Of a DNA stretch of 42,164 nucleotides, positions 1-40,077 are shown in pieces. How positions within the stretch are numbered: position 1 is the first letter of the stretch; the number at the start of each line of letters is the position of its first letter. Below the pieces are notes generated by a model that saw nothing but the letters and a program-made list of their open reading frames with translations, made no database searches and was not told where the DNA came from. Location: the IMG/VR virus record IMGVR_UViG_3300045747_000694, positions 1 to 42,164 of that record, one strand, 5' to 3'. The stretch comes from a virus. Both the position numbers and the translations under genes were made by a program.

Positions 1-862
1 CCTGGGTGACAAGGCCTTCGAGGGCTTCCGCATCCCGCAGCTGATGGTGCCGTGGCTGAAGTGGGACGACATCCTGGTGAAGTTCCAGACGTACCCGCGC
101 GGCCGCTTCTACAACGAGGTGCTCGGCCTCTCGTACGACTCGGGCACCCGCCCCCTGATGCAGCAGGACGTCATCGACAACTGCATCCAGGGCTTCTACA
201 TGTCGCCCCAGGTGCTGGCGAAGGTGAAGCACGACGCCTCCGGGACCTCGCCCATCTTCTGCGGCATCGACTGGGGCACCGGCGAAGGGACGTACACTGT
301 CCTCTCCTTGGGCACCTACATCAACGGCTTCTTCACCATCTTCTACATCCACCGCTTCGAGGGGCAGGAGCTCGAGCCGCCCATCCAGCTGGGCATCGTG
401 GAGGAGCTGATCCGGAACTGGCAGGTCGAGTGTGTGGGGGCCGACTACGGCGGCGGCTTCGACCGCAACGACCACCTCACCCGCAAGTTCGGCCAGGGCC
501 GCATCTGGAAGTACCAGTACAGCCAGCCGGGCCAGAAGGTGAAGTGGGAGGATCCCCTCAAGAGGTTCCTCGTCCACCGCACCGAAGTGATGAGCGACAT
601 GTTCAACGCCATCAAGCGGAGGAACGTCATCCGCTTCCCTGACTGGAGCCACTTCAAGGAACCGTTCGGCGCCGACATGCTGAACATCTTCAGCGAGTAC
701 AACGAGCAGACGCGGCAGATCGAGTACAAGCACGCACCCGACCGCACGGACGACGCCTTCCACTCCATCCTGCTCTGCTTCCTCGTCTCGATGCTCCGCG
801 TGCCGCGGCACGACGTGCTCAACCCCTCTGCTCGTACGGGGGCCTCCACCGAGATCGACTGA
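1..862 (+). CDS. terL: Terminase large subunit, C-terminal nuclease domain (5' end lies upstream of window)
   Basis: Reading frame is open from the window start (LGDKAFEGFRIPQLMVPW...). RNaseH-like nuclease motifs GIDWGTGEG, GADYGGGFD and TDDAFHS are typical of large-terminase C-terminal domains. TGA at 860-862. Confidence 0.8.
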   Translation, partial: LGDKAFEGFRIPQLMVPWLKWDDILVKFQTYPRGRFYNEVLGLSYDSGTRPLMQQDVIDNCIQGFYMSPQVLAKVKHDASGTSPIFCGIDWGTGEGTYTVLSLGTYINGFFTIFYIHRFEGQELEPPIQLGIVEELIRNWQVECVGADYGGGFDRNDHLTRKFGQGRIWKYQYSQPGQKVKWEDPLKRFLVHRTEVMSDMFNAIKRRNVIRFPDWSHFKEPFGADMLNIFSEYNEQTRQIEYKHAPDRTDDAFHSILLCFLVSMLRVPRHDVLNPSARTGASTEID

Positions 863-874
863 TAGGTAAGAAAC

Positions 875-902
875 TGGGCCCCTCAGACTTCAGGGGCCCA
901 GC
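875..902. terminator. Bidirectional stem-loop between convergent terL (+) and the 923..1384 (-) gene
   Basis: Perfect 10-bp inverted repeat CTGGGCCCCT / AGGGGCCCAG with an 8-nt loop. Sits 13 nt after the terL stop and 21 nt after the minus-gene stop. Confidence 0.6.
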
Positions 903-922
903 TTGTCCTACGTGCAGCGGTG

Positions 923-1384
923 TTACGAGAGCAGGTCGCCGACCGTGGGCAGGTCGTAGTGCTCGGCCGCCACGTTCCACAGCTTGACCGCGACCAGCAC
1001 GCCCGCGACGCCGAGCACGAACCGGTTGAGGTTGATGTGCATCCCGCCGACGCGGCGGACGGCGTTCCAGGCGTTGCGCTCGTGCACGCCGTCCCGGATG
1101 ATGTCGGCCAGCTCGACGGCGCCGGCGCCCTCGACCAGGCTGGCGACGACCGGGCGCTGCGCGGCCGGGATCATCGAGCGGATCTTCAGCATGGAGGCCT
1201 GGGCCTGCTCGACGGACAGCTCGGCCGCCGCGGCCTTCATCTCGGCGGACGGGTTCTTCAGCGCGCCCAGGACAGCGGCGAGCGTCTCGGCGTTCATCGG
1301 GGCGGTGGTCGCCCCGGCGAAGTCCGGGCCTTCGGCAGCCGCGCTGTGGGCGGTGCCCCTCTTGACGGTCTTCATGTTGTGCAT
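923..1384 (-). CDS. Hypothetical tail-anchored membrane protein (153 aa); inserted gene of unknown function in the head module
   Basis: ATG at 1384 is preceded by GGAAAGGGG. Ala-rich soluble N-terminal region, then a single C-terminal hydrophobic segment (FVLGVAGVLVAVKLWNVAA). Opposite strand to all flanking late genes. Confidence 0.6.
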   Translation of the reverse strand: MHNMKTVKRGTAHSAAAEGPDFAGATTAPMNAETLAAVLGALKNPSAEMKAAAAELSVEQAQASMLKIRSMIPAAQRPVVASLVEGAGAVELADIIRDGVHERNAWNAVRRVGGMHINLNRFVLGVAGVLVAVKLWNVAAEHYDLPTVGDLLS

Positions 1385-1482
1385 CCCCTTTCCCTTGCAA
1401 GGAAGGAACAACCACGGAGTGTGGAAGACAGGGTATTGCTACCCAGCCAATCCTTATACCGGTGGGGGGAGGGGAATTGCTG

Positions 1483-2199
1483 CTATGGGCCGGTCAGGAC
1501 TCGGCGGAGCTCATCCTGGGGGGTGTCCAGGGTCTGGAAGAGGGCCTGGGGGATGGTCCCCTTGCCGGACTCGATCCAGAAGAGGGCCGCCACCCGGATC
1601 TTCCTGCGGCCCTGCTCCATCTTGGCCTTGAGGGCCTGGAGGGAGAGGTCGTCCTTCACCCTCTTCGGAGAGAGGAAGTCCGACATCTTGGTCACGAGGT
1701 CGAAGAGGGGCTTCCAGGGCTGGGCACTCCCCGTGACCGCTGCGATGTGCTCGATGGCCTTCTCGTCCACCTGGTTGAAGACGCCGGCCCAGGAGTCGAG
1801 CTCCTTGAGCTGGTACTTGGGCAGGGCCAGGTAGTCGAGGACGGCACGGTGGAGACTGGCGGCCTCCTTGTCCCCCATCTTGAGCGGCTTCTCCTGGAGG
1901 CCCATGGCTTCCCACATGGCCTTCACCGCGCGCATCTCTTCCTCGAGCTGCGCAACGCGCCTGTTCAGCTGGAAGAGGGTGCGGCGATTCACGACAGGGA
2001 AGTCGGTGCCGAGCTCCTCCGCGAGCTGCTCCACGTCCTCGGGCTTCACGAGCACAGCCCGGTTACGGATTGCTTCCTTCCTCAAGAAGCCCCTCTTGAG
2101 GTAGTTGTGTACGGAGCGCTTCGAACACCCGAGACGTGCGGCGACCTCGGGGACGGTCATGAGCTGGGTGAAAGTGCTTCCCAAGTGGCGACCCTCCAT
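1483..2199 (-). CDS. HTH_17 (excisionase/MerR-like helix-turn-helix) DNA-binding protein
   Basis: N-terminal MTVPEVAARLGCSKRSVHNYLKRGFL is the classic HTH_17 signature. The ~200-aa C-terminal region is unrecognised. Start could be ATG 2199 (MEGRHL...) or ATG 2160 (MTVPEV...); not resolvable by eye. Confidence 0.65.
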   Translation of the reverse strand: MEGRHLGSTFTQLMTVPEVAARLGCSKRSVHNYLKRGFLRKEAIRNRAVLVKPEDVEQLAEELGTDFPVVNRRTLFQLNRRVAQLEEEMRAVKAMWEAMGLQEKPLKMGDKEAASLHRAVLDYLALPKYQLKELDSWAGVFNQVDEKAIEHIAAVTGSAQPWKPLFDLVTKMSDFLSPKRVKDDLSLQALKAKMEQGRRKIRVAALFWIESGKGTIPQALFQTLDTPQDELRRVLTGP

Positions 2200-2224
2200 C
2201 TACGCTGAATCCGGAGCATACCTC

Positions 2225-3169
2225 ATGCGAGACGACCTGACGACGTACCTCATCAGCGACCGGAAGCATCGGCCGTCCCTCTCCCCCGAGGCTCTCGAGC
2301 TGATGGGGAAGCAGGCGGCCAACCGGTTCCTCGACGAGGGCCTCCCGCTGAACGAGGAGATCGCCAAGCTCGCGAGCGAGCACGGCGACATCAACCCGGA
2401 CCAGGTGCGCCGGGTGGTGGAGTTCGCCAACAAGGCGACCTACCTCGGCCTCCACGAGAAGGCCAAGACCGCCGGGGCGAAGGAGAGCTACCCGCAGTTC
2501 GCTCTCGCCGACTCCAAGGTCATCCTGGGCAGCCTCGGCGAAGAGGCAAGCCCCCTGCGGACGCCCTCCGTCGACACCGACTACCGGTCGAGCGTCGAGA
2601 AGCGGGCGTCCATCGAGGGCGTCACCGCAGACAACCTCCTCGCCGACCTGTTCCGGGTGAAGAAGACCGCCGAGGTCGCCCACACCGCCGAGTCGGTGGT
2701 GAACGACATCGTCAGCGTGAAGGAGGACCTCACCTCCCTGCGCGACCACCTGACCCACACCGCGTCGACGCTCGACACGCTGTGGAAGGAGGCGCAGGAG
2801 GACTACTACGACCACGTGCGCCGCCACCTGCTGAACGGCGGCTCCTTCGCGGACGTCGTGGCCTCCTCCCGCATCCCCGGCGTCGAGCAGGAGAAGATCT
2901 CCTCGGCCCTCCAGCCCTTCGTGGTCCGGCTCCTCCAGGACAAGGTGGCCTCGGCTCCCGACCTGCGCGAGCAGGTGAAGGGCTTCGAGAAGGTGGCCCA
3001 CCGGATCCTCAACGAGAACCACCCGCTGGTCACCACCTTCCGTGCCTACCTGTCGCTCGATTCGGAGATCCAGAAGGTGGCCTCCGGTCTCCAGGACGTC
3101 GAGGTCGAGCTGGGGCGGGTGAACTCCTTCATCAAGGAGAAGTTCTGTGGCGGCACAGCGGCTCGCTAA
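2225..3169 (+). CDS. Hypothetical head-module protein (314 aa)
   Basis: Long ORF with high GC3. The ATG at 2225 is chosen because the upstream part of the ORF overlaps the divergent HTH gene. An alternative ATG at 2159 is possible. TAA at 3167-3169. Confidence 0.55.
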   Translation: MRDDLTTYLISDRKHRPSLSPEALELMGKQAANRFLDEGLPLNEEIAKLASEHGDINPDQVRRVVEFANKATYLGLHEKAKTAGAKESYPQFALADSKVILGSLGEEASPLRTPSVDTDYRSSVEKRASIEGVTADNLLADLFRVKKTAEVAHTAESVVNDIVSVKEDLTSLRDHLTHTASTLDTLWKEAQEDYYDHVRRHLLNGGSFADVVASSRIPGVEQEKISSALQPFVVRLLQDKVASAPDLREQVKGFEKVAHRILNENHPLVTTFRAYLSLDSEIQKVASGLQDVEVELGRVNSFIKEKFCGGTAAR

Positions 3170-3434
3170 GCTGGCAGCCATCTCCCGCCAGCTGACCTCA
3201 GGGGTGGAGAAGAGGGCCTTCGTCGGAGGGGTCCTCCGTCTTGCCAGCGGCGCCGGCAAGGTCGGCCTGAAGATGCTCGACAAGTACCCCAAGGCCACGC
3301 TCACCACTGCGCTCGGAACCGGCATGGCGGCGGTGGCCGGCAAGGGGTCCTACCAGCAGCACAAGGCTGGCTTCGACCCGAACGTCCAGAAGGCCATGCT
3401 CGGGAACACCCCAGTTCCCCCAGGAGTCTCGTGA
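3147..3434 (+). CDS. Hypothetical small protein (95 aa), GTG start
   Basis: GTG at 3147 is preceded by AAGGAGAAG at 7-nt spacing. Overlaps the upstream gene by 23 nt. Gly/Ala-rich. Confidence 0.5.
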   Translation: MAAQRLAKLAAISRQLTSGVEKRAFVGGVLRLASGAGKVGLKMLDKYPKATLTTALGTGMAAVAGKGSYQQHKAGFDPNVQKAMLGNTPVPPGVS

Positions 3435-4156
3435 TGCTGACCAAGGAAGCCCTCATCAAGCACGCCGGCGACGCCGCTCCTGAGCTGATGCAGAAGACGG
3501 CCGCGGTGCTCGTGCAGGTCGAGGCAGAGGCCCCGGAGAACCTGGCCTGGGTGGCCGGCGAGCTGGACGCCATCGCCCAGCACACCTTCGACAAGATCGC
3601 GGAGATCGGGGCCTGGGGGAAGTGGGGCCTGGCGGTGGGCACCGGCGCGGTGGCCGGCATCGCCAACGACCTGGCCGGGGACCTCTACGCCTCGGCCAAG
3701 CGTGGCCTCTCGAAGAGCCGCAACCTCACGGCCATCATGAAGATCAACCCCGAGCTGAAGGCCATGGACAAGCACCGGCTCCAGCTCTCCTTCGACGCCA
3801 TCCACCGCTACGCCCCGGAGATGACGGCCGACCCGCTGGTGGGTGGGGCCCTCCTGAAGAGCGTGGCCGATGTCTCCGGCAACGAGGCCGTGGCCATCAA
3901 GAACATCATCGACATGCGGAAGAACGTGGTCACCCCGTTCCGCCCGGGCGAGTCGCTCAAGATCGACCCGGTCCAGGCGCCGAAGGGTCCGACGACCTTC
4001 GAGAGGAAGCAGGACGCCAAGGTCCGCGCCCGTGGCGAGGCGCTCAAGACGCTCGTCTCGGACATCAGCAAGAGCAAGGGGACGTCTCCTCTCGCGAAGC
4101 AGCGGATGATCGGGACCGCCATCAAGATCCACGATCAGAGCGTCGACAAGCTGTAG
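3434..4156 (+). CDS. Hypothetical head-module protein (240 aa)
   Basis: ATG at 3434 overlaps the upstream TGA (TGATG). CAGGAG lies 7 nt upstream. High GC3. Confidence 0.6.
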   Translation: MLTKEALIKHAGDAAPELMQKTAAVLVQVEAEAPENLAWVAGELDAIAQHTFDKIAEIGAWGKWGLAVGTGAVAGIANDLAGDLYASAKRGLSKSRNLTAIMKINPELKAMDKHRLQLSFDAIHRYAPEMTADPLVGGALLKSVADVSGNEAVAIKNIIDMRKNVVTPFRPGESLKIDPVQAPKGPTTFERKQDAKVRARGEALKTLVSDISKSKGTSPLAKQRMIGTAIKIHDQSVDKL

Positions 4157-5875
4157 ATGATCAAGCTGACCCACTTCCTCGGCAAGTCCGAGCAGGGCAT
4201 CTTCGCCCAGGGTCTCTTCAGTGGGGCCTTGGAGAAGACTGCCGGCGCGCCGGGGCCAGCGTGGGACACCGCGGAGCCGATCAAGAAGCTCATCAAGAAG
4301 CTCACGCCCGAGGACCGCAAGAAGAACTGCTACGTCCTCGTGACCGCTCTCGGCGCCGGCGAGTACTACGGCTCCAACGTCAACTCCGACTTCTTCCCCT
4401 GGGAGGCGCTGACGCACCGGGGGAAGGACTACGGCTACGAGACCTTCCTCGACTCTCATGCCTTCGCTCACCACGCGAACAAGGACCCCGAGCGAGCGTT
4501 CGGGGTCCCTGTCGTCTCGGCCTTGAACGATCGCATGAAGAAGGTCGAGCTGGTCATCAAGCTCGACCGCGAGAAGGCCAAGATGGAGGGCGCGGACCAC
4601 ATCGTCCAGCGCATCGACTCCGGTGACTTCCCCGACGTCTCGATGGGCTGCAAGGTCCCCTTCGACGTCTGCTCCATCTGCGGCAACCGGTCGAAGACCC
4701 GCAACGACTACTGCGAGCACATGCGGCCCGGCCCGGAGAAGAAGGGCATCTGGGGGCCCAACAAGATCCTCGAGGACGGCCGTCAGATCTACGTCGTCAA
4801 CACCCTCCCTCGGTTCTTCGACATCAGCTTCGTCTTCATCGGCGCCGACAAGATCGCCAAGGCGATGGCCAAGCTGGCGTCCCGGGGGAACCATGTCTGT
4901 CTTGGTCAAGTGTGCGCAGTACCTGCTCGAGCAGGAGAAGCTGGCTCCGAGCCGGAGCTGTACTCAGCAACTGGCGATCGTCTCCAGCTTGGCGCACTTC
5001 GCAAGCAGGCTGATGGTGGAGCAGCTGTGCGCCGAGGGCCGTGCGGCCGGTGCTGCGATTCATGCGAGTCCCAGCAGTCTTGCGAGCTCGACAAGCTCGC
5101 CTCCGCTTTCGGAGTGAAGGAGGCTGGGAAGAAGCTCTCCTCCATCACGAAGAAGATCCCCTCGGACAACTTCACGGCTCGGAAGCTGCCGGAGATCGAG
5201 GCCAAGGAGAAGGACTTCCCCAAGGAGGTCCTGGACTCCTTGGCGGAGTACCCCCTCGCCAACAGCACGGGTGCCACCACCTCGGTGGGCATCGTTCTCA
5301 AGCCCCACGAGTTCCAGCGCATCGTCCTGGTGCGCATGGGAGAGGGGCAGCTGGCCGATGACCTGGATGCCAAGAAGCAGGTCTTCCAGCCCTCCGAGGA
5401 GTTCGACGACAGCGTCGACCCCGCGATGCCGGCAATCCGGGAGGCCCTCTCGATCGTCCTTCCCTACCTCATGGACCGGAGTGCGTTCTCCCCGGCCCTC
5501 TCTCCGCGGCTGATGAAGTTGGCGAACTCTTCGGAAGAGCGAAAGAAGTTCTTCCCACACAGGACGCCTATCGGCCATCCTATGCTCGACAAGGTCAGCG
5601 CGGCGTACAATGGCTATCGCCGCAACATCTTGATGAAGCTGTCGCAGGCAAGAGAGGCAGTACAGAGTGACTCGCAGTTGAGGTCGCACTTCTTCGGAGA
5701 CGAACTGGTCACGATGTTCAGCAAGACTTCCAGCCCCAATCCGATCATCGACCACGACACGGTCGCATACGTCATGAGCGCTCATCTCTCGAACCGCAGC
5801 CTGCTGACCGCCACCCGAGGCAATGGTGCCTCCGCGGTGGCCATTCCGTGGCTCCCTGAGGAGCTGTCGGCCTAG
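4157..5875 (+). CDS. Putative portal protein (572 aa); assignment by position only
   Basis: Largest head-module ORF, immediately upstream of the acidic scaffold gene (portal-scaffold-capsid order as in P22/T7). ATG overlaps the upstream TAG (TAGATG). Unusual Cys cluster CKVPFDVCSICGN...YCEH. No portal motif recognised by eye. Confidence 0.35.
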   Translation: MIKLTHFLGKSEQGIFAQGLFSGALEKTAGAPGPAWDTAEPIKKLIKKLTPEDRKKNCYVLVTALGAGEYYGSNVNSDFFPWEALTHRGKDYGYETFLDSHAFAHHANKDPERAFGVPVVSALNDRMKKVELVIKLDREKAKMEGADHIVQRIDSGDFPDVSMGCKVPFDVCSICGNRSKTRNDYCEHMRPGPEKKGIWGPNKILEDGRQIYVVNTLPRFFDISFVFIGADKIAKAMAKLASRGNHVCLGQVCAVPARAGEAGSEPELYSATGDRLQLGALRKQADGGAAVRRGPCGRCCDSCESQQSCELDKLASAFGVKEAGKKLSSITKKIPSDNFTARKLPEIEAKEKDFPKEVLDSLAEYPLANSTGATTSVGIVLKPHEFQRIVLVRMGEGQLADDLDAKKQVFQPSEEFDDSVDPAMPAIREALSIVLPYLMDRSAFSPALSPRLMKLANSSEERKKFFPHRTPIGHPMLDKVSAAYNGYRRNILMKLSQAREAVQSDSQLRSHFFGDELVTMFSKTSSPNPIIDHDTVAYVMSAHLSNRSLLTATRGNGASAVAIPWLPEELSA

Positions 5876-5946
5876 AGGGCGCGCGAGCCCCTCGTAGACG
5901 GCCCACACTGATCGCCGAAGTTCAACGACTCGAAGGAGAAGAACAC

Positions 5947-6783
5947 ATGGACAAGACGCTCGCAGAGATCTACGGGACCAACCAGTCCGACGACCAGGAG
6001 AAGCTGGCCGCCGCGGCCGCCGCCGAGGAGCTCACCGAGGACGGTGCGCTCGACCTCGAGGGCCTGACCGAGGAGGACCTGGAGGCCGTCGCCGCCGAGG
6101 TGCTCGAGGCCAGCGCCGAGGGCGAGGCGGAGACCGAGGAGGTCGAGGAGTCCGACGAGGAGGAGAAGACCGCCTCCGAGGAGGACCTCGAGGAGAAGGT
6201 CGCCGAGGCCGACCAGATGGGCCGCATCATGGCCCACGCCTACGTGCAGGAGCTCCGGTCGATCGAGAAGACCGCCGGCGCCAAGATCGACGCCCTCAAG
6301 GCGGGCGGCAAGAAGATGCTGCACCGCGCCGGCCGCGGCCTCGAGGCCGTCGGCAAGAAGCTGACCCCGACCAAGAGCGGCGACAAGGCCTTCTCGAAGG
6401 GCAAGCTCGAGTCGATGATGGCGGCCCGCAAGAAGGGCGCCAAGATGAAGGACATCAAGTCCGGCATGACCGGTCACCGTGCGGCCGGGCACGAGGCCGA
6501 GGGCAAGCTGCACAAGCGCGTCGGCGGTGCGGTCGTCGGTGGCGGCGCCCTCGCCGTCGGTGGCGGCGTCGCCGCGGCCAAGGGCGGCAAGTCCAAGAAG
6601 GCCTCCGCCCTGGACACCCTCGCCGAGCAGCGCGCCCAGGAGATCCTGGCCGCCAACGGCGTCACCGAGCAGGAGACCGAGACCACCAAGTACGACGTCC
6701 TCGCCGACGCCGTCGAGCAGCGCGCGACCGAGATGCTGGCCGAGGCCGGCTACGAGTTCGCGGACGAGAGCGCCGAGGAGTAG
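5947..6783 (+). CDS. Scaffolding protein (278 aa, highly acidic, coiled-coil)
   Basis: RBS GAAGGAGAAGAACAC then ATG. N-terminal region is ~40% Asp/Glu (EELTEDGALDLEGLTEEDLEAV...). Lies between the putative portal and capsid genes and is followed by a strong hairpin. Confidence 0.6.
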   Translation: MDKTLAEIYGTNQSDDQEKLAAAAAAEELTEDGALDLEGLTEEDLEAVAAEVLEASAEGEAETEEVEESDEEEKTASEEDLEEKVAEADQMGRIMAHAYVQELRSIEKTAGAKIDALKAGGKKMLHRAGRGLEAVGKKLTPTKSGDKAFSKGKLESMMAARKKGAKMKDIKSGMTGHRAAGHEAEGKLHKRVGGAVVGGGALAVGGGVAAAKGGKSKKASALDTLAEQRAQEILAANGVTEQETETTKYDVLADAVEQRATEMLAEAGYEFADESAEE

Positions 6784-6792
6784 CACCCCCTT

Positions 6793-6830
6793 CCTTGGGG
6801 GCGGGATGGTACGAGCGCCCGCCCCCAAGG
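6793..6830 (+). terminator. Stem-loop after the scaffold gene
   Basis: Perfect 13-bp inverted repeat CCTTGGGGGCGGG ... CCCGCCCCCAAGG with a 12-nt loop, 10 nt after the TAG at 6781-6783. No U-tract, as is common in high-GC genomes. Confidence 0.55.
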
Positions 6831-6848
6831 ATGTTGTTCAGGAGCCCC

Positions 6849-7094
6849 GTGCAGACCGCAAACCCCAGCCACAAGCCCAAGACGGCAAGCAGCTTGGCCT
6901 TGTGGAAGGGATTCGCCGACGAGCTCCAGAAGATCGCCATGACGACACCAGCCAACATCACAGCCATGGCTCGCCCCAAGCCGGTGAAGATGGGGAACAC
7001 GTCGATGCCCCGCGACACCCCGCCGATGTCGCCAACGAAGGATTCGCTGTCGAGCACGAAGCTCACAACCCCGCCGCCCGTCACGGCGGGCTGA
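6849..7094 (+). CDS. Small Pro/Thr-rich protein (81 aa) carrying the AFxDELxKI family motif; not in the ORF track with this start
   Basis: GTG at 6849 with AGGAG 4 nt upstream (ATG 6831 is an alternative but abuts the hairpin). Contains KGFADELQKIA, matching the motif in four other small proteins of this module. Its TGA at 7092-7094 lies inside the RBS of the next gene. Local GC is lower (~60%). The antisense frame also gives a two-TM ORF, so strand choice is uncertain. Confidence 0.4.
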   Translation: MQTANPSHKPKTASSLALWKGFADELQKIAMTTPANITAMARPKPVKMGNTSMPRDTPPMSPTKDSLSSTKLTTPPPVTAG

Positions 7095-7105
7095 AGGAGA
7101 AGAAG

Positions 7106-8104
7106 ATGCACACCAAGCTGGCAGGCCGCCTCCCGCTCCAGGACATGATCGCCGCGCACATCGAGTCCGCTCGGGTGAAGCTGGCGGCCGCCGAGGGCAA
7201 GGAGTCGAAGAAGGACGAGAAGGACGAGAAGAAGGTCGAGAAGCTCGTGAAGTACGAGAAGAAGGAGCACGGCGGGAAGATCCCGTCCGAGAAGGAGGAG
7301 GAGGCCGAGAAGACGGCGTCCTTCGACGCCTTCGACCCCGACTCCATCGACAAGCTCGCCTCCGCCCTCGAGCAGGTGGCCGAGAAGCTCGCCGGCGACT
7401 CCGTCGAGCTCGGCGGCGAGAAGAAGCAGGGCGGCGAGGTGCTGCCGACCCAGACGCCGACCGGGGGCAAGCAGGCCTACACGGGCGCCAAGGCGAAGAC
7501 CCAGATCCCGCAGAGCTCCAAGGAGAAGGCCACCAAGGACAACCCGGGTGCCGCCACTGCCATGGAGACGGACGAGACCCGCAAGGTCGGCCCCTCCGCG
7601 GCCTACCCGGCCAAGGGCGTCCTCAAGACCGCCGGGCAGACGGTGCTCGAGCGGATCCAGGCCAAGCGCGACGAGGCGGCCGGCGAGGCCGTGCTGGTCC
7701 CGGAGAAGACCGCCGGCGCCATCGACTACGTCCTCGAGAAGATCAAGGCGGCCGAGTTCCACGGCGGCGGCGAGACCCTCGACGACAAGTCGGCCCCCAT
7801 CCCCAGCAACGCGGGCCGGCAGATGATCGCCAGCAACAAGGCCCCCGTCGGCGCCACCAAGCGCGAGGCCAAGGCTCCCCGGAAGGCGGAGCTGGCCCAG
7901 GTGCTCAAGGAGCCGGCCCTCACCTCTTCGACCGACAACACGGTCAACCAGAACCTGCGGAACGCCTCCAAGGGTGGCGTGAAGATCGCAGCGGCGAAGG
8001 CCTACCTCCGCAAGATCGCGGAGGAGGGCTGCACGTGCGGCAAGGACGGTACCTGCCGTCACTGCAAGCTCCAGAAGGCCGTCGAGGCCAAGAAGGCCTC
8101 GTAG
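7106..8104 (+). CDS. Lys/Glu-rich head-module protein (332 aa) with C-terminal CxCx5CxxC knuckle; possible core or second scaffold protein
   Basis: ATG at 7106 after GAAGGAGAAGAAG. Upstream in-frame sequence is RP-rich junk. KEKDEK-type low-complexity N-terminal half. C-terminal EEGCTCGKDGTCRHCK. Confidence 0.6.
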   Translation: MHTKLAGRLPLQDMIAAHIESARVKLAAAEGKESKKDEKDEKKVEKLVKYEKKEHGGKIPSEKEEEAEKTASFDAFDPDSIDKLASALEQVAEKLAGDSVELGGEKKQGGEVLPTQTPTGGKQAYTGAKAKTQIPQSSKEKATKDNPGAATAMETDETRKVGPSAAYPAKGVLKTAGQTVLERIQAKRDEAAGEAVLVPEKTAGAIDYVLEKIKAAEFHGGGETLDDKSAPIPSNAGRQMIASNKAPVGATKREAKAPRKAELAQVLKEPALTSSTDNTVNQNLRNASKGGVKIAAAKAYLRKIAEEGCTCGKDGTCRHCKLQKAVEAKKAS

Positions 8105-8562: not shown

Positions 8563-9048
8563 ATGGCCGGACCGAACTTCGAGCTCATCACCGAGCTCCA
8601 GACCCTGACCCGCCGCGACTTCACCATCGCGGACAGCACCATCCTCGCCCCCACGGGCGCCCTTCCCCTCGTCGACGGCGAGTGGCTCGAGATCAACTCG
8701 AGCTACCAGCTGGCGCGCGGGGCGACCGGCGTCCAGTCGTACAGCCCCCTCACCTTCCCGGTGCACACCGAGCGCGGTCGGTACGACACGCAGGCCATCG
8801 GCAAGGTCAACGTCCTGATGCTCGGCATGTACGAGGCCGAGACCCAGGTGATGGTCGCCTCGGGCATCACCCTGGGCGAGGGGCTCATCGTGAACAGCCT
8901 CGCCTCCGGTGCCCACCTGGGCCGGCGCGGTCTCGTCGAGCAGGGCTCGGCGACGGCCACCACCCTGGTCGTGGGCTACGCGACCAAGCTGCCCGCCAGC
9001 AACGGCGGGAAGCTCCGCTTCGTCCACTTCGGCAACGCGCTCGTGTAG
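8563..9048 (+). CDS. Hypothetical head protein (161 aa), possibly a decoration or minor capsid protein
   Basis: RBS AAAGGAATAGGAGACGACAACC then ATG. Immediately upstream of the capsid candidate. Tandem TAG TAG stop. Confidence 0.55.
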   Translation: MAGPNFELITELQTLTRRDFTIADSTILAPTGALPLVDGEWLEINSSYQLARGATGVQSYSPLTFPVHTERGRYDTQAIGKVNVLMLGMYEAETQVMVASGITLGEGLIVNSLASGAHLGRRGLVEQGSATATTLVVGYATKLPASNGGKLRFVHFGNALV

Positions 9049-9070
9049 TAGCGAGCCAGAACAAGGAGAC

Positions 9071-10198
9071 ATGACCATGAGCGCCACTGCCGTTCCAGCC
9101 AAGGTCCTCAACGACCTCTTCTTCGAGAAGATCGGGTCCACCGAGGGCAAGGACAAGATCGCCGAGTTCGGGGGCACGTACATCCGTGACCGCCTCCGCG
9201 AGGTGAGCTTCGCCCGCAAGATCATCCCGCCCACGCCCGTCCAGCGCAGCGAGCTCCAGCGCTCGGTGAACCACGACACGCTCGTCAAGATCGTGGACAT
9301 CGAGCCGAACTCGAAGGCCACCAGCCTGACCTTCCGCGGTCAGCCGACGGCGCGGTTCATCCGCGCCCCGCGCTTCGAGATCCCCTTCTTCACCATCTCC
9401 TCGGAGAAGTTCGAGAAGACGGAGCAGGAGCTCCTGGCGTACGAGATGCCCATCACCAAGATCATCGAGGAGAACTCGGTGAAGGACATCCAGGCCATCG
9501 AGGATCGCCAGTTCCTGATCTTCGTCGAGGCCTGCATCCAGGCGATGCAGCTCTCGGCCAACGGCGGCACCCCGACCTCCAACAAGGTCAACGGCGGCAC
9601 CGCCGTGGTGTCCTCGGTCATCAAGGGCGCCGGCGCCGTCACCGGCAACGCGAACACCTTCACGGTGTACTCGCTCCAGAAGAACGACTTCGTCAAGCTG
9701 AAGCAGCTCCTGCACCGGCGCTTCCTCCGGTCGGAGCGGCTCCTGATGACGGAGCCGGACTACGACACCCTCTCGACCTGGACCATGACCGAGGTCTGGA
9801 ACATCGCTGCCGAGACGGCGACCGAGGGCTGGAAGAGCAACACCGTGGTGGGCCTGAAGATCATCCGGACCATCAAGACCAACATCCTCCGCGAGGGCAA
9901 CGTGTACTGCTTCACGGCGCCCGAGTTCTTCGGCCGGTTCTACATCCTGAACCAGACGAAGTTCTACATCGACAAGATCGCCAACCTCATCACCTGGCAG
10001 AGCTGGGAGGACATCGGGATGGGCTTCGGCAACGTCGCCGCCGTCACCAAGCTCGAGCTCTTCGGTGGTGGCGTGGTCCCCGGCGCCTCGCCGGACACGG
10101 GCTACGCGGCGGCCCTGCCGATGGACGAGTCCGACCTGAACCCGGTCAACAACCTGGCCGACGCCGGGACGACCTACCCGCAGGTCGACCAGTTCTAG
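9071..10198 (+). CDS. Major capsid protein candidate (375 aa)
   Basis: ATG at 9071 after ACAAGGAGAC. Size and position (downstream of scaffold) fit a capsid protein. Followed by the strongest hairpin in the module. No fold can be confirmed by eye. Confidence 0.5.
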   Translation: MTMSATAVPAKVLNDLFFEKIGSTEGKDKIAEFGGTYIRDRLREVSFARKIIPPTPVQRSELQRSVNHDTLVKIVDIEPNSKATSLTFRGQPTARFIRAPRFEIPFFTISSEKFEKTEQELLAYEMPITKIIEENSVKDIQAIEDRQFLIFVEACIQAMQLSANGGTPTSNKVNGGTAVVSSVIKGAGAVTGNANTFTVYSLQKNDFVKLKQLLHRRFLRSERLLMTEPDYDTLSTWTMTEVWNIAAETATEGWKSNTVVGLKIIRTIKTNILREGNVYCFTAPEFFGRFYILNQTKFYIDKIANLITWQSWEDIGMGFGNVAAVTKLELFGGGVVPGASPDTGYAAALPMDESDLNPVNNLADAGTTYPQVDQF

Positions 10199-11101: not shown

Positions 11102-11638
11102 GTGTCGGACCCCATCAGCAACAAGATCGACCCTGTCCTGCCTGCCCGGAACGCGAGCGAGTTCGCGGACCTTCCGGCGTCGAACACGCAGCTCGACAGC
11201 TTCATCCAGCTGGTGCGGGCCTACATGCGGGACTACCCGGAGCTCAACCGGCTCATCGCCGGCGAGGAGAGCTCCAACCGGCAGATCGCCTGGGCCATCA
11301 TCGACGCGGTGGACGACTTCAACACCACCCCGCCCTTCACCCGCTTCGGCCTGAACGACTACCCCTCTCGTTCCCTCCTGCTGCGCGCCACGGTCATCAC
11401 GCTGCTCGAGTCCATCGGGCTTCTCCAGACGCGCAACCACCTCCAGTTCTCCGACGGTGGCATCACCGTCGGCGTGAACGACAAGACGCCCTTCCTCCAG
11501 GCCTGGATCCAGCTCTTCCGGAACAGCTACGAGGACAAGAAGATGAAGATCAAGGTCGCCTACAACATCGAGTCGGCCTGGGGAGGCGGCATCCATTCCG
11601 AGTACCGCTTCATCAACAACTACTACGGTGACTGGTGA
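11102..11638 (+). CDS. Hypothetical protein (178 aa), possible head-tail connector or adaptor, assigned by position
   Basis: GTG at 11102, 3 nt after the upstream stop. Ends TGATG-coupled to the next gene. Confidence 0.5.
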   Translation: MSDPISNKIDPVLPARNASEFADLPASNTQLDSFIQLVRAYMRDYPELNRLIAGEESSNRQIAWAIIDAVDDFNTTPPFTRFGLNDYPSRSLLLRATVITLLESIGLLQTRNHLQFSDGGITVGVNDKTPFLQAWIQLFRNSYEDKKMKIKVAYNIESAWGGGIHSEYRFINNYYGDW

Positions 11639-13600: not shown

Positions 13601-15409
13601 GTGGCGTATGGCAACCGGCTTCCGCTCGACGCCAACGTCGTAGGCTACTGGGGCTTCGACGAGGCGAACGAGACGGATCCAGCTCTCGACGAGAGCCAGT
13701 ACGGCCACAACATGGTCGTCACTGGCTCTCCGTTCGTTCTCCCTGCGCGCTGCAACAACGGCCGGCAGTTCAACGGGTCCTCCACCTACTCCGCCCGGGC
13801 CGACACGGCGCTCCTCAAGCTCACGGGGGACATGACCCTCATCGTCTGGCCCACCCTCGACCAGGTGAACAGCTCCGGCTCTCACCTGCGCTGCATCCTC
13901 GAGTGCGGCGGGACGACCTCGATCCAGGCCGACAACATCCTCTACGGGCTCTACGTCTCGGACGCCGGCGAGCTCATCTACCGGCATGAGCACGGGGCTG
14001 GCCTGGTGGTGGAGTTCAAGACGACCGTCGCCACCATCAAGACGGGGCGCTACTACGCCATCGTCGTCGTCCGCTCGGCCAACGTCCTCACCCTCTACCT
14101 CGACAACAAGCTGACCGCTTGGGCGAGTGCTACCGTCGATGGCGCCTCTCACCCGGTGGGCACGGCGGTGACGGCCCCTGATGGTGGGACGAATGCGCTG
14201 CTCACGATGGGGAAGAGCCCCAAGGCGGTAGACGGGGCCTTCTGGTACGGCACGCTGGACGAGGTCTCCATCCACAACCTCGCCCGCCCCTACCAGCCCT
14301 ACCTGCTCTCCATCTACTACAAGCTCACCCTCTCGAACTCCTTCTACCGCCTCACCGCCTACAACACGGTGAAGAGTGTGGCGGCCGCGGAGATGGGTGG
14401 CGGCTCGAGGTGGTGGGTGTACGAGCGGGACCAGTCGCTCTACGCCGTGCGCGAGAACACCCTGGGCCTCTTCACCCCCGAGGTGCAGCTCACCACTGGC
14501 GGTCTCCAGCCGAACGGGACAGTGGCGCCGGGCGGGACGGAGAAGCCCACCGTCGTCTACGACAAGGCGAACGACCTCCTGGTGGTGGCCTTCATCGGCT
14601 CCGGCCGAGTCTACCGTCTCACCGCGAAGGTCGGGGACGCTCCCCAGACGCAAGCGATGCCCTACACGGTGGACACCGCTGGCATCGTGAAGGTGCGCGA
14701 CTCGGATGAGGGCATCCGCCTCGGTGCCGGTGCGGGCAGCAGGGCTCCCCTCAACGACCTCGCGTACACGAACCGCTACCCCTTGAAGTTCCCGACCAGC
14801 GACTCGATGGGCGCTGGTGCCGGCGGAGGAGACACCAAGGAACTGATGCAGCCCCAGAGTTCGAGCGCCTACTATGCTGCGCCTGGTGACCTGAAGTTCA
14901 CAGGAGTGGACAGCTTTGGGCTTCTGTGGTCCTGGACGAACACTGCCGGGTTCGCAGTCTTCACCGAGCTCTACGGGGTGGCCACTCGGATCGGCACAGT
15001 CATGGCCGCAACGAAGGACAGCAGCGGAAGGACGATGGGCTTCTTCCCCATCACCTCGAGGCAGTACCAGCGCAGGTACTTCGTGAAGCCGCTCTTCTGG
15101 AACGGGACGCTCCGGACCGTGATGTCGAACATCGTGGAGGACCTTCTCGCCACCGCGGACATCTACGACTACCGATACCCGACGAGCGTCGTGTACAACA
15201 GGAACGACGATGATCCACACAGCGCGCCCCTCGGGTCGGGCAACGGACTTCGGGTGGGCGACTTCACCCCGATCTACATCAACCGCACACCCCTCAAGCT
15301 GCCAACCGCAGACGTCATGAGCGCGGGCGGGGGTGCAGGGCTCAGGGTGTCGACCAGCAACTCCGCAAGCATCACCGCGCCTCAGCGCAGGGCATTCGAG
15401 GTCTCATGA
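13601..15409 (+). CDS. Tail fibre / receptor-binding protein with N-terminal LamG (concanavalin A-like lectin) domain (602 aa)
   Basis: GTG start. N-terminal ~220 aa matches the Laminin_G_3 pattern (GYWGFDE...G...G..G.A..F.G....Y...L.......W......YLDNK......GTLDEVSIHN). Confidence 0.7.
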   Translation: MAYGNRLPLDANVVGYWGFDEANETDPALDESQYGHNMVVTGSPFVLPARCNNGRQFNGSSTYSARADTALLKLTGDMTLIVWPTLDQVNSSGSHLRCILECGGTTSIQADNILYGLYVSDAGELIYRHEHGAGLVVEFKTTVATIKTGRYYAIVVVRSANVLTLYLDNKLTAWASATVDGASHPVGTAVTAPDGGTNALLTMGKSPKAVDGAFWYGTLDEVSIHNLARPYQPYLLSIYYKLTLSNSFYRLTAYNTVKSVAAAEMGGGSRWWVYERDQSLYAVRENTLGLFTPEVQLTTGGLQPNGTVAPGGTEKPTVVYDKANDLLVVAFIGSGRVYRLTAKVGDAPQTQAMPYTVDTAGIVKVRDSDEGIRLGAGAGSRAPLNDLAYTNRYPLKFPTSDSMGAGAGGGDTKELMQPQSSSAYYAAPGDLKFTGVDSFGLLWSWTNTAGFAVFTELYGVATRIGTVMAATKDSSGRTMGFFPITSRQYQRRYFVKPLFWNGTLRTVMSNIVEDLLATADIYDYRYPTSVVYNRNDDDPHSAPLGSGNGLRVGDFTPIYINRTPLKLPTADVMSAGGGAGLRVSTSNSASITAPQRRAFEVS

Positions 15410-31960: not shown

Positions 31961-32212
31961 CTACTTCGCGTCGCTAGCGACCCGCGGCTTGCGCGCCTTG
32001 GGGGTTCTCGTGAGGGACCTGACGCGGCCCGCCTGCTGCCGGCCCTTGTCGTCCTTCACCAGCTCGAACTCGACCGTGTCGCCCTGCGTCAAGGTCCGGT
32101 ACCCCTCCATCTCGATGTTCGAGTGGTGGACGAACAGGTCCTTGTCGTCCCCGTCGGGGACAACGAAGCCGAACCCCTTGATGGAGCTGAACCACTTGAC
32201 CTTGCCGCGCAC
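31961..32212 (-). CDS. Cold-shock domain protein (83 aa) with basic C-terminal tail
   Basis: GKVKWFSSIKGFGFVVPDGDDKDLFVHHSNIEMEGYRTLTQGDTVEFELVKDDKGRQQAGRVRSL aligns by eye to E. coli CspA (GIVKWFNADKGFGFI...DVFVHFSAI...). No ATG is available. GTG at 32212 is the nearest in-frame start, but the RBS is weak, so the start is uncertain. Confidence 0.65.
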   Translation of the reverse strand: MRGKVKWFSSIKGFGFVVPDGDDKDLFVHHSNIEMEGYRTLTQGDTVEFELVKDDKGRQQAGRVRSLTRTPKARKPRVASDAK

Positions 32213-37152: not shown

Positions 37153-37328
37153 CTTGCCTCCCTCCGCAGGAGAGGAGCCTTCTCCAACATCCAAGGGGTG
37201 AAGCACTCGGTGTGCAGGAGGAACGCCTTCTTCGTGCTGGGAGTCTGCACCTCGAGCATGCTGTCTCCATCCTTGATGGCGCTCTTGCACTCCGCGCACT
37301 TGAAGCTCTTCTTGGTCTTTCTGGCCAT
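37149..37328 (-). CDS. Small Zn-ribbon protein (59 aa)
   Basis: CTGAGGAGCTG then ATG at 37328 (TGATG overlap with the VWA gene stop). FKCAECK...HTEC. Confidence 0.55.
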   Translation of the reverse strand: MARKTKKSFKCAECKSAIKDGDSMLEVQTPSTKKAFLLHTECFTPWMLEKAPLLRREAR

Positions 37329-39055
37329 CAGCTCCTCAGGTAGTTGGTGAAGGAGGTCCTCACGAGATCGGTCATCTCGAAGAAGAGGTCCTCCGGGTTG
37401 TCTCCGACGCGCACCCAGCGCTTCGGGCCCAGCATCCTGTCCGCCTCTGAAGACGGCAGGGTGTTGCCCAGCAGCACGGTGCTGACTCGGATGCGCCGGC
37501 GAGAGGCATCGACCACGTCCTGCCTCACCTGCTCGCGCAGGCTGATGTTCGACTGGGCCCCGATGGTCTGCGGGTTGCCGTCCGAGACGATGAGCAGGTG
37601 CTTCATCCTCCCAGGCATCTGGGCCAGCTGCCGCGCAGCGACAGGAACGGCGATGTGAAGCGGGGTGAGCCCCCACGCCTCGGGGATGGTCTTCTTCGGC
37701 AGGTAGCCCTTGGTCGGGTCCTCGAAGTCGATGATGACTGTCCCTCCGGTGCTGTCGCCAGAGAAGCCCCAGACCTTCACGTTCGAGAAGGGGAACTTGG
37801 TAGCCACCGCAGCCACCTTCGCTGCCCTCGAGACGGTCATCCAGAGCTGCTGCATGGAGCCGCTCATGTCGAGCAGGATGATGAGGTCGAAGCCCTTGGC
37901 CGGGCGGTCCTCGAGGAAGAACTCCATGTCGCCCTGACCGTGGAGGAACTCGATGTAGCGCTCGGGGTCGAGGTGGGATCCCTCTTCGGCCCTCGCACGG
38001 GTGCGCTGGTCGATGAGCTTGATGAAGATGCGGCGCAGCTCCGAGGCGAGACGGGAGTCCCTCTCGCTCAGCCTGAACTCCTCGGCGTCATGGGTGGCCA
38101 CGTGGATGATCTTCGTCCTGTGCATCCCCTTCAAGAGGTCCTGGTCCGGCGGGATCTCGTGCAGCTTGGAGGAGAGGCGGCGGATGAGCGTCTGCACCTC
38201 CTCCATGCCTGAGCTGAGGAGCTGGGTGAGCGCATCATCCGACTCGAGGCCCATCGCAGTGCGCGCGACGTGCCTGGTCTTCTCCGTGTCCCTGTCGAGA
38301 GCTCGAGGGGACTCGGTGTCGAACAGCAGGGCAGACCCCCGAGATTGGAGGGCCGCCTTCTCCATCTGAACGACTGCCCGCTCGTTGCTGTAGGGCTTCC
38401 TCTTCGTCATCCTCCTCACCCCACCAGCCTGCGGCACGCCGGGCTCCTGGAGCACCTCCTCATCTGCGAGGAGGCCGATGACGTGGTCGAGGATGATGCG
38501 GGTGGCCACGAGCACAGTGGGGTAGCTGGCACGCTTCACCAGTTCGAGCGCTCGCAGGATGACGGGGTCGAAGCGGTCCCAGTTGCTGCCGGGGACCACG
38601 GCTGCGTCGATGCCGAGGGCGATGACCCTCATGGTGAGGTTGCCCTTCGTCCCGTCGGCGAGGAGGCGCTCCCACCGAGTCTTCAGGCGCTCGGCACTGC
38701 CCGGGTACACCATCTCGTGGAGAGAGTGCACCCGAACGTCATCGACGGCGTTGGCGAGCATGTCGATGAAGTCCTCCTGGAGGGAGGTGGGGGACAGCCC
38801 CTTCAGCTTCCTCTCCTCGAGGTAGAGCTCCACGAAGTGCGCTCGAGCGTAGAGGTCCGTGCCGAAGAGCACGTGCGTCCACTCGTGCTTGTGGATGACG
38901 TCCACCTCCTGGTCCTCGATGGGGACAGAGAGGTAGGTCTCGGTGTCCGTCCGACCAGGAGGATCAGCGGCGAAGAGCGTGAGCTCCTTCCCCGTGAGGC
39001 CGCAGAAGATCTTGTGGACCTTCCGCATGATGTCGACCCGGTCCTTGTGGCTCAC
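37328..39055 (-). CDS. von Willebrand factor A (VWA) domain protein, CobT-like partner of the AAA+ ATPase (575 aa)
   Basis: GTG at 39055 in a GTGA overlap with the AAA gene stop (the in-frame ATG at IMRKVH is an alternative). C-terminal FDLIILLDMSGSMQQ (MIDAS DxSGS) ... LLIVSDGNPQ. Confidence 0.65.
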   Translation of the reverse strand: MSHKDRVDIMRKVHKIFCGLTGKELTLFAADPPGRTDTETYLSVPIEDQEVDVIHKHEWTHVLFGTDLYARAHFVELYLEERKLKGLSPTSLQEDFIDMLANAVDDVRVHSLHEMVYPGSAERLKTRWERLLADGTKGNLTMRVIALGIDAAVVPGSNWDRFDPVILRALELVKRASYPTVLVATRIILDHVIGLLADEEVLQEPGVPQAGGVRRMTKRKPYSNERAVVQMEKAALQSRGSALLFDTESPRALDRDTEKTRHVARTAMGLESDDALTQLLSSGMEEVQTLIRRLSSKLHEIPPDQDLLKGMHRTKIIHVATHDAEEFRLSERDSRLASELRRIFIKLIDQRTRARAEEGSHLDPERYIEFLHGQGDMEFFLEDRPAKGFDLIILLDMSGSMQQLWMTVSRAAKVAAVATKFPFSNVKVWGFSGDSTGGTVIIDFEDPTKGYLPKKTIPEAWGLTPLHIAVPVAARQLAQMPGRMKHLLIVSDGNPQTIGAQSNISLREQVRQDVVDASRRRIRVSTVLLGNTLPSSEADRMLGPKRWVRVGDNPEDLFFEMTDLVRTSFTNYLRS

Positions 39056-40008
39056 GTGAGCCCCACTCGAGCGGCGAGGTCGGCGTGCGTCCCGTTCTTG
39101 GTGATGTCCTGGATCCGCTCGATGACGAGCTTCCGGTCCTCGTCGCCGAACTTCTGGCAGAGGAGGAACATCATGTCGAACCAGCCAACGCGGGGGAGCA
39201 GGTTGATGAGCTCCACCAGGTCGCGCGTGGAGAGGGAGTAGCTGGTGGCGCCCTGCCGGGTCTGGTTGGCGATGTTCACCAGCATCTCCAGGCCCTGCTG
39301 CTGGATGGGGTCTCCCATCGAGCCCGTCTTCCCGTAGCCGGTCATCTCCATGAGGATCTCCTTCTCCGCCTCGGGGGGCGGGTAGGGGATGTCGATGCAG
39401 GTGAAGCGCGAGCGCAGGTCGTCGTTCAGCTCGTTGGTCCCGCCGTACACGGTGGGGTTCTGCGTGGCGATGACCCAGAGCTTGGCAGTGGGCGAGAGCT
39501 CGAGCCTGGTGGAGAGCTCTGGGATCTCCAGCTTGCGCCTGAAGTCGGTGAAGCTGTTCACCAGCTTCTGCTGCTGGTTGGGCAGCGAGTTCAGCTCCTC
39601 GAGCACGAGCATGGCGAAGCCGCACTCGTTGGCCACCTTGATGGCATTGGCGACGGTGCCGAGGATGAAGGGGGTCTCGCCGCTCTTGGCGATGAAGCCT
39701 CCCTTGAAGTGCCGCTCCCGCGTCTCCTCCGAGCAGTCCATGGAGAGGTAGGGGATGCCGAGGGTCTCGGCCAGGTACGACGCCAGCAGGGACTTCCCCG
39801 TCCCCTTCGGTCCGTTGAGGAGGAGGTTGGGAGGGTCCCAGGTACCCGAACCGGTAGGTACCTGACTCATCTTGGTGATGAAGGGGATGAGCTCGAAGAC
39901 GTCCACGAACTTCAAGCTCTTCCTCAAGACGAGCGAGGCAGGTACCATGTACCGGACTTCGATGCCGTTGACGCGGAGGATGCCCTCTCCAATTGCTTCG
40001 AGAGTCAT
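39052..40008 (-). CDS. MoxR-type AAA+ ATPase, CobS-like (318 aa)
   Basis: Walker A LLLNGPKGTGKSLLASYLAE. Walker B AMLVLEELN. MoxR-like length and layout. First gene of the minus-strand operon, downstream of the divergent promoter region. Confidence 0.75.
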   Translation of the reverse strand: MTLEAIGEGILRVNGIEVRYMVPASLVLRKSLKFVDVFELIPFITKMSQVPTGSGTWDPPNLLLNGPKGTGKSLLASYLAETLGIPYLSMDCSEETRERHFKGGFIAKSGETPFILGTVANAIKVANECGFAMLVLEELNSLPNQQQKLVNSFTDFRRKLEIPELSTRLELSPTAKLWVIATQNPTVYGGTNELNDDLRSRFTCIDIPYPPPEAEKEILMEMTGYGKTGSMGDPIQQQGLEMLVNIANQTRQGATSYSLSTRDLVELINLLPRVGWFDMMFLLCQKFGDEDRKLVIERIQDITKNGTHADLAARVGLT

Positions 40009-40077
40009 AAGGCCTCAGATAGTGTAGGGTTGTAGTCCTTCAAGGTCTTATCCCCTCAACGCGGACCCTTTGGACCG
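40009..40077. promoter_or_regulatory. Divergent intergenic region, relatively AT-rich; likely promoters for the minus-strand island and the + strand genes
   Basis: 69-nt gap between divergent starts (40008 - / 40078 +). TAGTGTAGGGTTGTAG and TTCAAGGTCTTATCCCCT stand out against ~67% GC coding sequence. Confidence 0.4.

Follow-up and report, generated by a model that had tools for sequence, protein, structure and literature searches.

A fixed minus-strand gene pair between terminase and head genes of uncultured phages: a putative regulator and a hypervariable protein with a predicted membrane anchor

A pair of minus-strand genes lies between the terminase gene and the head genes in the IMG/VR virus record IMGVR_UViG_3300045747_000694. 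We analyzed positions 1 to 42,164 of this record as one stretch of DNA (42,164 nt, GC = 65%), which is referred to as the window. The pair comprises a gene for a protein with an N-terminal winged helix-turn-helix (HTH), here called the HTH protein, and downstream of it a gene for a small protein with a predicted membrane anchor close to its C-terminus. On one side the pair faces the gene for the large terminase subunit (TerL), of which the window holds the 3' part, and on the other side it diverges from a block of morphogenesis genes on the plus strand (Table 1).

Table 1. Coordinates of genes and signals around the minus-strand unit (aa, amino acids; H1 to H3, hairpins; ORF, open reading frame).
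Feature	Position	Strand	Details
TerL gene, 3' part (GpA type)	2-862	+	phrog_675, E = 1e-18; converges on the minus-strand unit
Intrinsic-terminator-like hairpin	866-902	-	stem 875-884/893-902, perfect 10-bp G+C stem, 8-nt loop; UUUCUU tail (866-874)
Gene for the small, putatively C-terminally anchored membrane protein	923-1384	-	153 aa (ATG 1384) or 150 aa (ATG 1375)
Predicted transmembrane helix	965-1021	-	residues 119-137 of the 150-aa form
Structured leader of the small gene	1383-1448	-	H1 1427-1448, H2 1412-1424, H3 1383-1409
Promoter-like bipartite element	1453-1480	-	GCAA (1477-1480), 16-nt spacer, GGTATAAG (1453-1460)
Winged-HTH protein gene	1483-2184	-	233 aa from TTG 2184; ORF open to ATG 2199 (1483-2199 = 238 aa)
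Part of the HTH gene: helical C-domain	~1534-1872	-	
Part of the HTH gene: long helix	~1906-1986	-	
Part of the HTH gene: winged HTH	~2011-2160	-	
Divergent junction	2185-2224	none	40 bp
First gene of the morphogenesis block	2225-3169	+	314 aa, no family match; ATG 2225; back to back with the HTH gene

Both minus-strand ORFs are real genes, since their GC content at third codon positions (small gene 0.94, HTH gene 0.90) equals that of the flanking TerL (0.95) and head ORF (0.93), with far lower values in the alternative frames, and since homologues of both proteins exist elsewhere. This bears out the layout given in a preliminary description of the window, which placed two genes, opposed to the late genes and about 100 nt apart (98 nt at 1385-1482), between the 3' end of TerL and the head genes.

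Assemblies from IMG/VR, JGI, ENA and Logan provided relatives of the HTH protein, and 15 distinct related loci were examined (L numbers below). All 15 share one order: the head genes point away from the HTH gene, which is followed on its own strand by the small gene or genes and then, where the contig reaches it, by TerL in the opposing direction. The synteny extends to L016, whose HTH protein is ~30% identical to that of the window, and to L017-L020, which were found by a profile of the C-terminal domain (C-domain) only. While the HTH gene always adjoins the first head gene at a distance of 25-100 bp, the content between the HTH gene and TerL varies, with one or two genes; L020 has two and L017 carries an HTH_36 gene on the opposite strand. 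Beyond TerL, the relatives have divergent genes such as Endonuclease VII, RNase HII and GIY-YIG. Between the window and L004, local/global alignment gave identities of 47-51% (HTH protein), 64-66% (first head protein), 50% (241-aa protein) and 76-77% (TerL), and the HTH protein diverges at about the rate of the neighbouring head proteins.

The preliminary description had taken the pair for an insert in a moron position. This does not hold, as the unit occupies the same place in the same orientation in all related loci and its composition is like that of the flanks, without any anomaly (GC 0.63-0.71 over the unit and 0.62-0.68 in the flanks). What differs between close relatives is the allele of the small gene, not the presence of the unit. 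A comparison with related phages had been proposed there, with conservation as essential head-assembly components as the outcome that would speak against a moron: of this outcome, only the conservation is supported by the loci. When 50,697 records of cultured phages were searched at the DNA and protein level for the region and for both minus-strand proteins, nothing was found, and among these records TerL alone has distant relatives (25-29% identity).

The preliminary description had called the product of the first gene an HTH_17 regulator, and the domain is confirmed by PF12728 (HTH_17) with 36.2 bits against a Pfam cut-off of 27 (E = 7e-9). TIGR01764 scored 24.3 bits, which is under its cut-off of 28.8, and some relatives of the HTH protein show weak MerR matches. 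The monomer model has three parts, the winged HTH, a long helix and the C-domain, with one helix only between the wing and the long helix. Its N-terminal part shows a helix-turn-helix with a beta-hairpin wing and a third helix, and the C-domain is modelled as a globular helical bundle. Many of the Foldseek neighbours in the PDB are of the MerR type, with MerR N-domains aligned over ~100-130 columns (E >= 0.05), and the structural neighbours of the winged HTH include the DNA-binding domains of RacA and pSK1 Par. The C-domain has no relative in Pfam, and a PDB profile search with it was empty. A profile of the C-domain alone found at least 273 cluster representatives (E <= 0.001), nearly all of 220-260 aa with the domain at ~61-228; the names on those family members that were checked are 'hypothetical' or 'helix-turn-helix domain-containing' only. 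Two motifs stand out, an (M/L)GST motif ahead of the HTH, conserved in an alignment with ten homologues, and an invariant VEQLAxExGxDxP motif on a face without DNA contact. The HTH protein belongs to an uncharacterised family with a fixed architecture, consisting of an Xis/MerR-type winged HTH, a long helix and a new helical C-domain.

Most likely the HTH gene starts at TTG 2184 and encodes a protein of 233 aa, because this codon follows a GGAGGG Shine-Dalgarno sequence, because it is the equivalent of the start codon in distant relatives, where ATG-GGA-AGC comes after GGAGGG (homologous M/L-G-S), and because the upstream ATG is out of frame in L004. From this start it follows that the divergent junction with the head genes, which is present as first described, measures only 40 bp and does not span 2199-2225. 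The two ribosome-binding sites lie back to back in it (GGAGGG at 2192-2197 on the minus strand, GGAG at 2212-2215 on the plus strand), and GGTATGCTCCGG and AGCGTAGATGGAGGG are identical in six loci, relatives with 50% protein identity included. In distant relatives the junction contains an extra ~30 nt with a small hairpin; it maps to 4638-4724 in L004 and to 2632-2700 in L006, and in both the start of the 314-aa protein (MRDDL/MDEL) is conserved. As 40 bp leave no room for promoters, both promoters must sit inside the opposite gene.

With this fold and this position, the HTH protein could also be the small terminase subunit (TerS), encoded on the strand opposite to TerL: its MerR-like winged HTH would read the packaging site, and its helical C-part would oligomerise and hold the GpA-type TerL. 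We consider this unlikely, though it is the leading alternative. The type of TerL fits, as full-length homologues of 602-605 aa carry PF05876 (GpA_ATPase), and gpNu1, the partner of GpA in lambda, has a MerR/BldC-like winged HTH (PMC6739421), the class found in the HTH protein. In every locus that includes TerL, the HTH gene lies ~0.6-1.4 kb from it. Furthermore, no other TerS candidate stands beside TerL in any locus, the upstream neighbours being divergent Endonuclease VII, RNase HII or GIY-YIG genes, which leaves the TerS role open for the HTH protein. However, the likeness to TerS stops at the HTH. An hhalign comparison with lambda Nu1 covered 42 columns with a probability of 6%, phrog_57 (E = 0.01, residues 12-58) is the only match among the PHROG TerS families, no Pfam TerS family matched, and other winged-HTH proteins score above the gpNu1/TerS families. 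The gene is adjacent to TerL but convergent with it in every TerL-bearing locus, not co-transcribed, and its linkage to the head-gene junction is tighter than that to TerL. Nor is it unusual for the clade that such a neighbour is missing: in Bacillus phage Blastoid (Andromedavirus), which among the cultured phages checked for this has the closest TerL, a TerS is not annotated upstream of TerL either. In addition, the globular helical bundle predicted for the C-domain is not a known TerS oligomerisation module.

In contrast to the HTH gene, the small gene does not follow its surroundings. The window and L001 share 97% identity in TerL, 90% in the HTH protein and 92% in the first head protein, but 31% in the small protein, while for L005 the corresponding values are 90, 75 and 80%, with 78% for the small protein. 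At the nucleotide level, the identity to L001 and L002 is 86-100% in most flanking 50-nt bins, falls to 40-56% over most of ~900-1400, which is the small ORF, and recovers at the leader and the terminator. Because the similarity of the small protein is decoupled from that of the flanks, allele exchange at a fixed slot together with fast divergence is the likely cause. These sequence comparisons indicate that the small gene is hypervariable and swapped between related genomes, and that it changes far faster than its neighbours. No homology to the small gene is detectable for the gene that follows the HTH gene in L018, L019 and L020, yet its product has a hydrophobic helix near the C-terminus. 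To judge from such predicted helices, the kind of protein in the slot is kept even where the sequence is not. Fast evolution and swapping suggest that the protein interacts with a partner that itself varies, for instance the host envelope or a competing phage.

The small protein consists of a basic N-terminus, an Ala-rich, acidic middle part and a region of the form ...GAG..LA..LR.G..E...W..RRVGA.N(I/V)KV(R)H... Its predicted helix reaches a Kyte-Doolittle 19-residue mean of 1.97 (next-best segment 1.42); a basic stretch, RRVGG..N.NR, lies ahead of the helix and a tail of 13 residues behind it. This is the single hydrophobic helix, and neither another membrane segment nor a signal peptide is present, as expected for a tail-anchored protein. 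In all but two of the homologues with a complete C-terminus the hydrophobic segment scores 1.7-2.5, so the tail-anchored membrane protein of the preliminary description stands with regard to its predicted C-terminal anchor. Since basic residues precede the helix and there is no signal sequence, the N-terminal part (~115 aa) would be cytoplasmic and held in the membrane by the C-terminal helix. The protein had no match in Pfam, PHROGs, NCBIfam, PADLOC or a PDB profile search, and no known defence or anti-defence family was matched in the first four of these. Its homologues form only six protein clusters in a search of 5.8 billion sequences, in addition to the related loci. A holin was rejected as a candidate: no lysis enzyme was recognised beside the unit in the window, and an N-terminal cytoplasmic domain of ~115 aa is atypical of a holin. 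L019 has a Peptidase_C92 gene, which lies ~7 kb off, beyond TerL.

The promoter that the preliminary description had suspected in the gap between the two genes gains support from a conserved bipartite motif, to which we attribute putative promoter activity. GGnATAAGG in the 98-nt gap was invariant in the first six loci aligned. The exact GGNATAAG has 25 matches in the window and the loci, and 25 of 25 share the strand of the HTH gene. Apart from those in the homologous leaders, the matches are mostly found 15-90 nt upstream of other gene starts, and they precede genes for RNase HII (L004, L005), GIY-YIG (L002) and the AAA_5 ATPase (window 40047-40054, minus strand). A terminator-like hairpin directly precedes the motif in L002 and L020, and often a hairpin lies within a few bases downstream of it. 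Although the pattern search did not select for an upstream element, an A is present at -21 in 19 of 22 sites and at -20 in 20 of 22, resulting in the consensus G[C/A]AA-N16-GGnATAAG; the spacer of the GGnATAAG element is not conserved. Sites in relatives are located at 11471 (L001), 11470 and 13252 (L002), 8700 (L004), 4460 (L005), 11519 (L016), 14515 (L018), 12490 (L019) and 10589 (L020). Based on its strand and its target genes, the consensus may represent a class of promoters, specific to the lineage, that serves non-late genes. We dismissed by eye the possibility that GGCAT...TTGC is a sigma-54 site, because the spacing from GG to GC varies among the loci.

The leader of the small gene, which follows the motif, is predicted to form a series of three hairpins in 9 of 11 loci and of two in the remaining 2, with different sequences and folding z-scores of -0.4 to -4.0 (mean about -2.2). 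As the hairpins do not align by sequence, the loci were folded separately; RNAalifold on a MAFFT alignment of the leaders recovered H1 only. Between the window and L001, H1 shows two double compensatory changes, and H3 holds the purine-rich ribosome-binding site of the small gene. A tRNA-like leader was ruled out by ARAGORN, and Rfam gave no credible family for the leader or for the hairpin at 875-902. On the minus strand the latter folds with a minimum free energy of -31.2 kcal/mol and z = -4.8, while z is -2.3 for the plus strand. It had been described as perfect and bidirectional. The perfect 10-bp stem is there; the second attribute is not supported, as the U-rich tail follows on the minus strand only. 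A strict consensus terminator scan gave no sites and did not call the hairpin. All eight relatives folded (L001, L002, L004, L005, L016, L018, L019 and L020) have a hairpin with a different stem and a U-rich tail at the same place, and we read the element as the probable terminator of the minus-strand unit. The promoter-like motif and this hairpin lie on either side of the small gene.

Own promoter-like element and terminator, hypervariability with exchange and a membrane product are all typical of accessory genes for host interaction, and they favour the view that the pair is an acquired moron cassette for superinfection exclusion, repressor-like functions or anti-defence. For the whole unit this view is largely refuted by the synteny, and we assign it very little probability. 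Every relative examined has the unit, down to similarity detectable by profile only, it lacks a compositional anomaly, the HTH protein belongs to a core-like family of at least 273 clusters, and defence and anti-defence models match the bare HTH only, the single PADLOC match being mad1. Superinfection exclusion or anti-defence is possible for the small gene alone, given its hypervariable and exchanged sequence. An Acr-Aca operon was rejected as well: the HTH gene is upstream, so the order is indeed the reverse of the typical acr-aca order, as noted at the outset, the HTH protein is a 233-aa core protein, and the one match in PADLOC, mad1, covers nothing beyond the HTH.

By analogy with RacA/DivIVA or phi29 p16.7, the two proteins might form a tether between DNA and membrane that localises replication, transcription or packaging. 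In at least five lineages, the gene behind the HTH gene encodes a protein with a predicted C-terminal anchor, even without detectable homology, the RacA and pSK1 Par domains are among the structural neighbours, and the invariant VEQLAxExGxDxP off the DNA face could be a site of protein contact. On the other hand, a tight complex would not be expected to have a partner that diverges and is exchanged independently of the HTH protein, as is the case here, and L017 has only a weakly hydrophobic protein of 69 aa, with the opposite-strand gene in between. A tether of this kind seems as improbable to us as the moron cassette.

Taken together, our preferred reading, to which we give a probability of roughly 0.45, is that the two genes are a fixed, lineage-wide unit set against the late genes in uncultured, high-GC, probably large tailed phages, and that they encode a core regulator that binds DNA and an envelope protein that evolves fast and has a promoter of its own. 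The HTH protein would be a core DNA-binding protein, most likely a transcription regulator, with a long helix suited to dimerisation. It would act at or near its back-to-back junction with the head operon, possibly also at the lineage-specific GGnATAAG promoters, and would help to set the switch between non-late and late expression. A regulator at the early/late boundary is suggested by the fold neighbours, the MerR-like three-part layout, the invariant position at the head operon and the conserved junction DNA. The small gene would be expressed separately, from a promoter-like element of the class that precedes RNase HII, GIY-YIG and AAA_5 genes, with a hairpin-rich leader and an intrinsic terminator. 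Its product would have an envelope-associated role in which it meets variable partners, for example in the exclusion of related phages or in envelope or lysis timing; the anchor, the separate non-late promoter class and the exchange between genomes are the reasons for this assignment. The gene calls, the domains, the synteny, the hypervariability, the distribution of the motif and the hairpins are observations; from them we infer that the element is active as a promoter, that the HTH protein is a regulator, that the small protein enters the membrane and what role it has.

Several results weigh against this interpretation. A sigma-70 promoter scan gave no sites, and the motif does not match the sigma-70 consensus. 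For the HTH protein, Pfam MerR_1 (19.8 bits, cut-off 21.6) and MerR (18.8 bits, cut-off 28.2) are both below threshold, and every full-length Foldseek match is weak (E >= 0.05). A repeat search of 800-2400 gave no repeated or dyad site that could serve as its operator, and because the junction is too short for promoters, the proposed target is not defined. The vacant TerS position beside TerL also belongs here. For the small protein, the hydrophobic segments of two homologues (L002 and L009) are weak, with values of ~1.0, and the AlphaFold model has a low confidence (mean predicted local distance difference test score, pLDDT, of 46; helix at 116-139) and was too poor for a fold search. The claim that H3 masks the ribosome-binding site was dropped, as the pairing was no higher than in upstream-shuffled controls (Fisher p = 0.43).

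A more speculative combination appears improbable to us, with slightly better prospects than the tether. Here, the HTH protein, encoded antisense to TerL, would serve as a small terminase of a non-canonical kind or as a DNA anchor, and together with its tail-anchored partner it would place packaging or late transcription at the inner membrane. The swappable partner and the leader would tune this arrangement to different hosts, and GGnATAAG would be the site of an undescribed phage-specific transcription system.

On the plus strand, the block downstream of the junction includes a 572-aa protease-like protein (phrog_18299) and the major head protein (phrog_2522). The label 'head genes' is secure for these two only: the 314-aa protein had no Pfam, PHROG or NCBIfam match, and Pfam and PHROGs recognised no portal among the first genes (314, 95, 241, 572, 278 and 418 aa; 2225-8104, plus strand). 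In some relatives, inteins or Hint/LAGLIDADG domains interrupt TerL (L018, 10333-14457; 1374 aa) and the 846-939-aa homologues of the 572-aa protein (L016, 3450-6254; L018, 4158-6698; a gene at 1285-4104 of an ERZ1426852 contig), while the window copies of both are intein-free. ARAGORN reported a tRNA-Arg(TCT) at 9621-9712 (minus strand), antisense within the ORF of the major head protein (8909-10198), which is possibly a false positive. A 602-aa protein (13601-15409, plus strand) with a Laminin_G_3 (concanavalin-like lectin) domain may belong to a tail fibre or to the receptor-binding apparatus. The AAA_5 (MoxR/CobS-like) ATPase (39052-40008, minus strand) adjoins a VWA_CoxE protein (37328-39025, minus strand) in the non-structural part of the window, and a cold-shock-domain protein is encoded nearby at 31961-32182 (minus strand). 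With regard to genome size, contigs of the lineage reach 175-198 kb (L001, 198,259 bp; P0002, 196,070 bp; L017, 174,885 bp), and the nearest cultured TerL relatives include Salmonella and Vibrio phages of 180-187 kb. Therefore, the window may be part of a large phage genome.

What looked like a moron is thus a fixed part of the genome plan in a poorly known lineage of large uncultured phages. It draws attention to a widespread, uncharacterised family of DNA-binding proteins, with at least 273 clusters, always between TerL and the head operon, and to a slot in which a predicted membrane-anchored protein is swapped among otherwise near-identical genomes, a type of locus that often holds host-range, exclusion or envelope functions. 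The strand-specific promoter-like motif could sort the genes of the lineage into expression classes. We infer the functions of both genes, and current ideas are not overturned by them.

Several known systems resemble parts of this unit. Morons and genes for superinfection-exclusion membrane proteins have their own promoter and terminator inside a late region, a membrane product and a rapid turnover. The small gene appears to share these traits, with its promoter-like element, terminator-like hairpin, predicted membrane product and rapid turnover; unlike morons, the slot and its signals are conserved throughout the lineage, the same kind of protein is always present and the composition is not foreign. 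In phage T7, the gene order is 18 (TerS), 18.5/18.7 (spanins) and 19 (TerL). This order of a DNA-binding packaging-related gene, a small membrane protein gene and TerL is similar to the one found here, with the differences that TerL is inverted, that the anchor is C-terminal and not N-terminal and that there is no homology.

Excisionase/AlpA/HTH_17 proteins such as mycobacteriophage Pukovnik Xis (4J2N) are single-domain proteins of 55-100 aa linked to an integrase. A role as an excisionase was set aside for the HTH protein, which has an extra 170 aa forming a long additional domain and a core position in the morphogenesis region, with no integrase noted in the window or the loci. Lambda gpNu1 combines, like the HTH protein, an N-terminal MerR-like winged HTH (PMC6739421) with a helical remainder, and its gene also lies beside a GpA-type TerL. 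It differs in length (181 aa vs 233 aa) and in the predicted C-terminal fold, the similarity is confined to the HTH, and here the gene runs opposite to TerL. Regulators of the MerR family with a C-terminal effector domain, for example TipAL, BmrR and CarH, differ from the HTH protein in that its MerR and MerR_1 scores are sub-threshold, its model has a single helix between the wing and the long helix, its C-domain is without a Pfam or PDB relative and the sequence revealed no promoter whose spacer of 19-20 bp contains a dyad. The overall plan of the model, however, resembles theirs, with an N-terminal winged HTH, a long helix and a separate C-domain.

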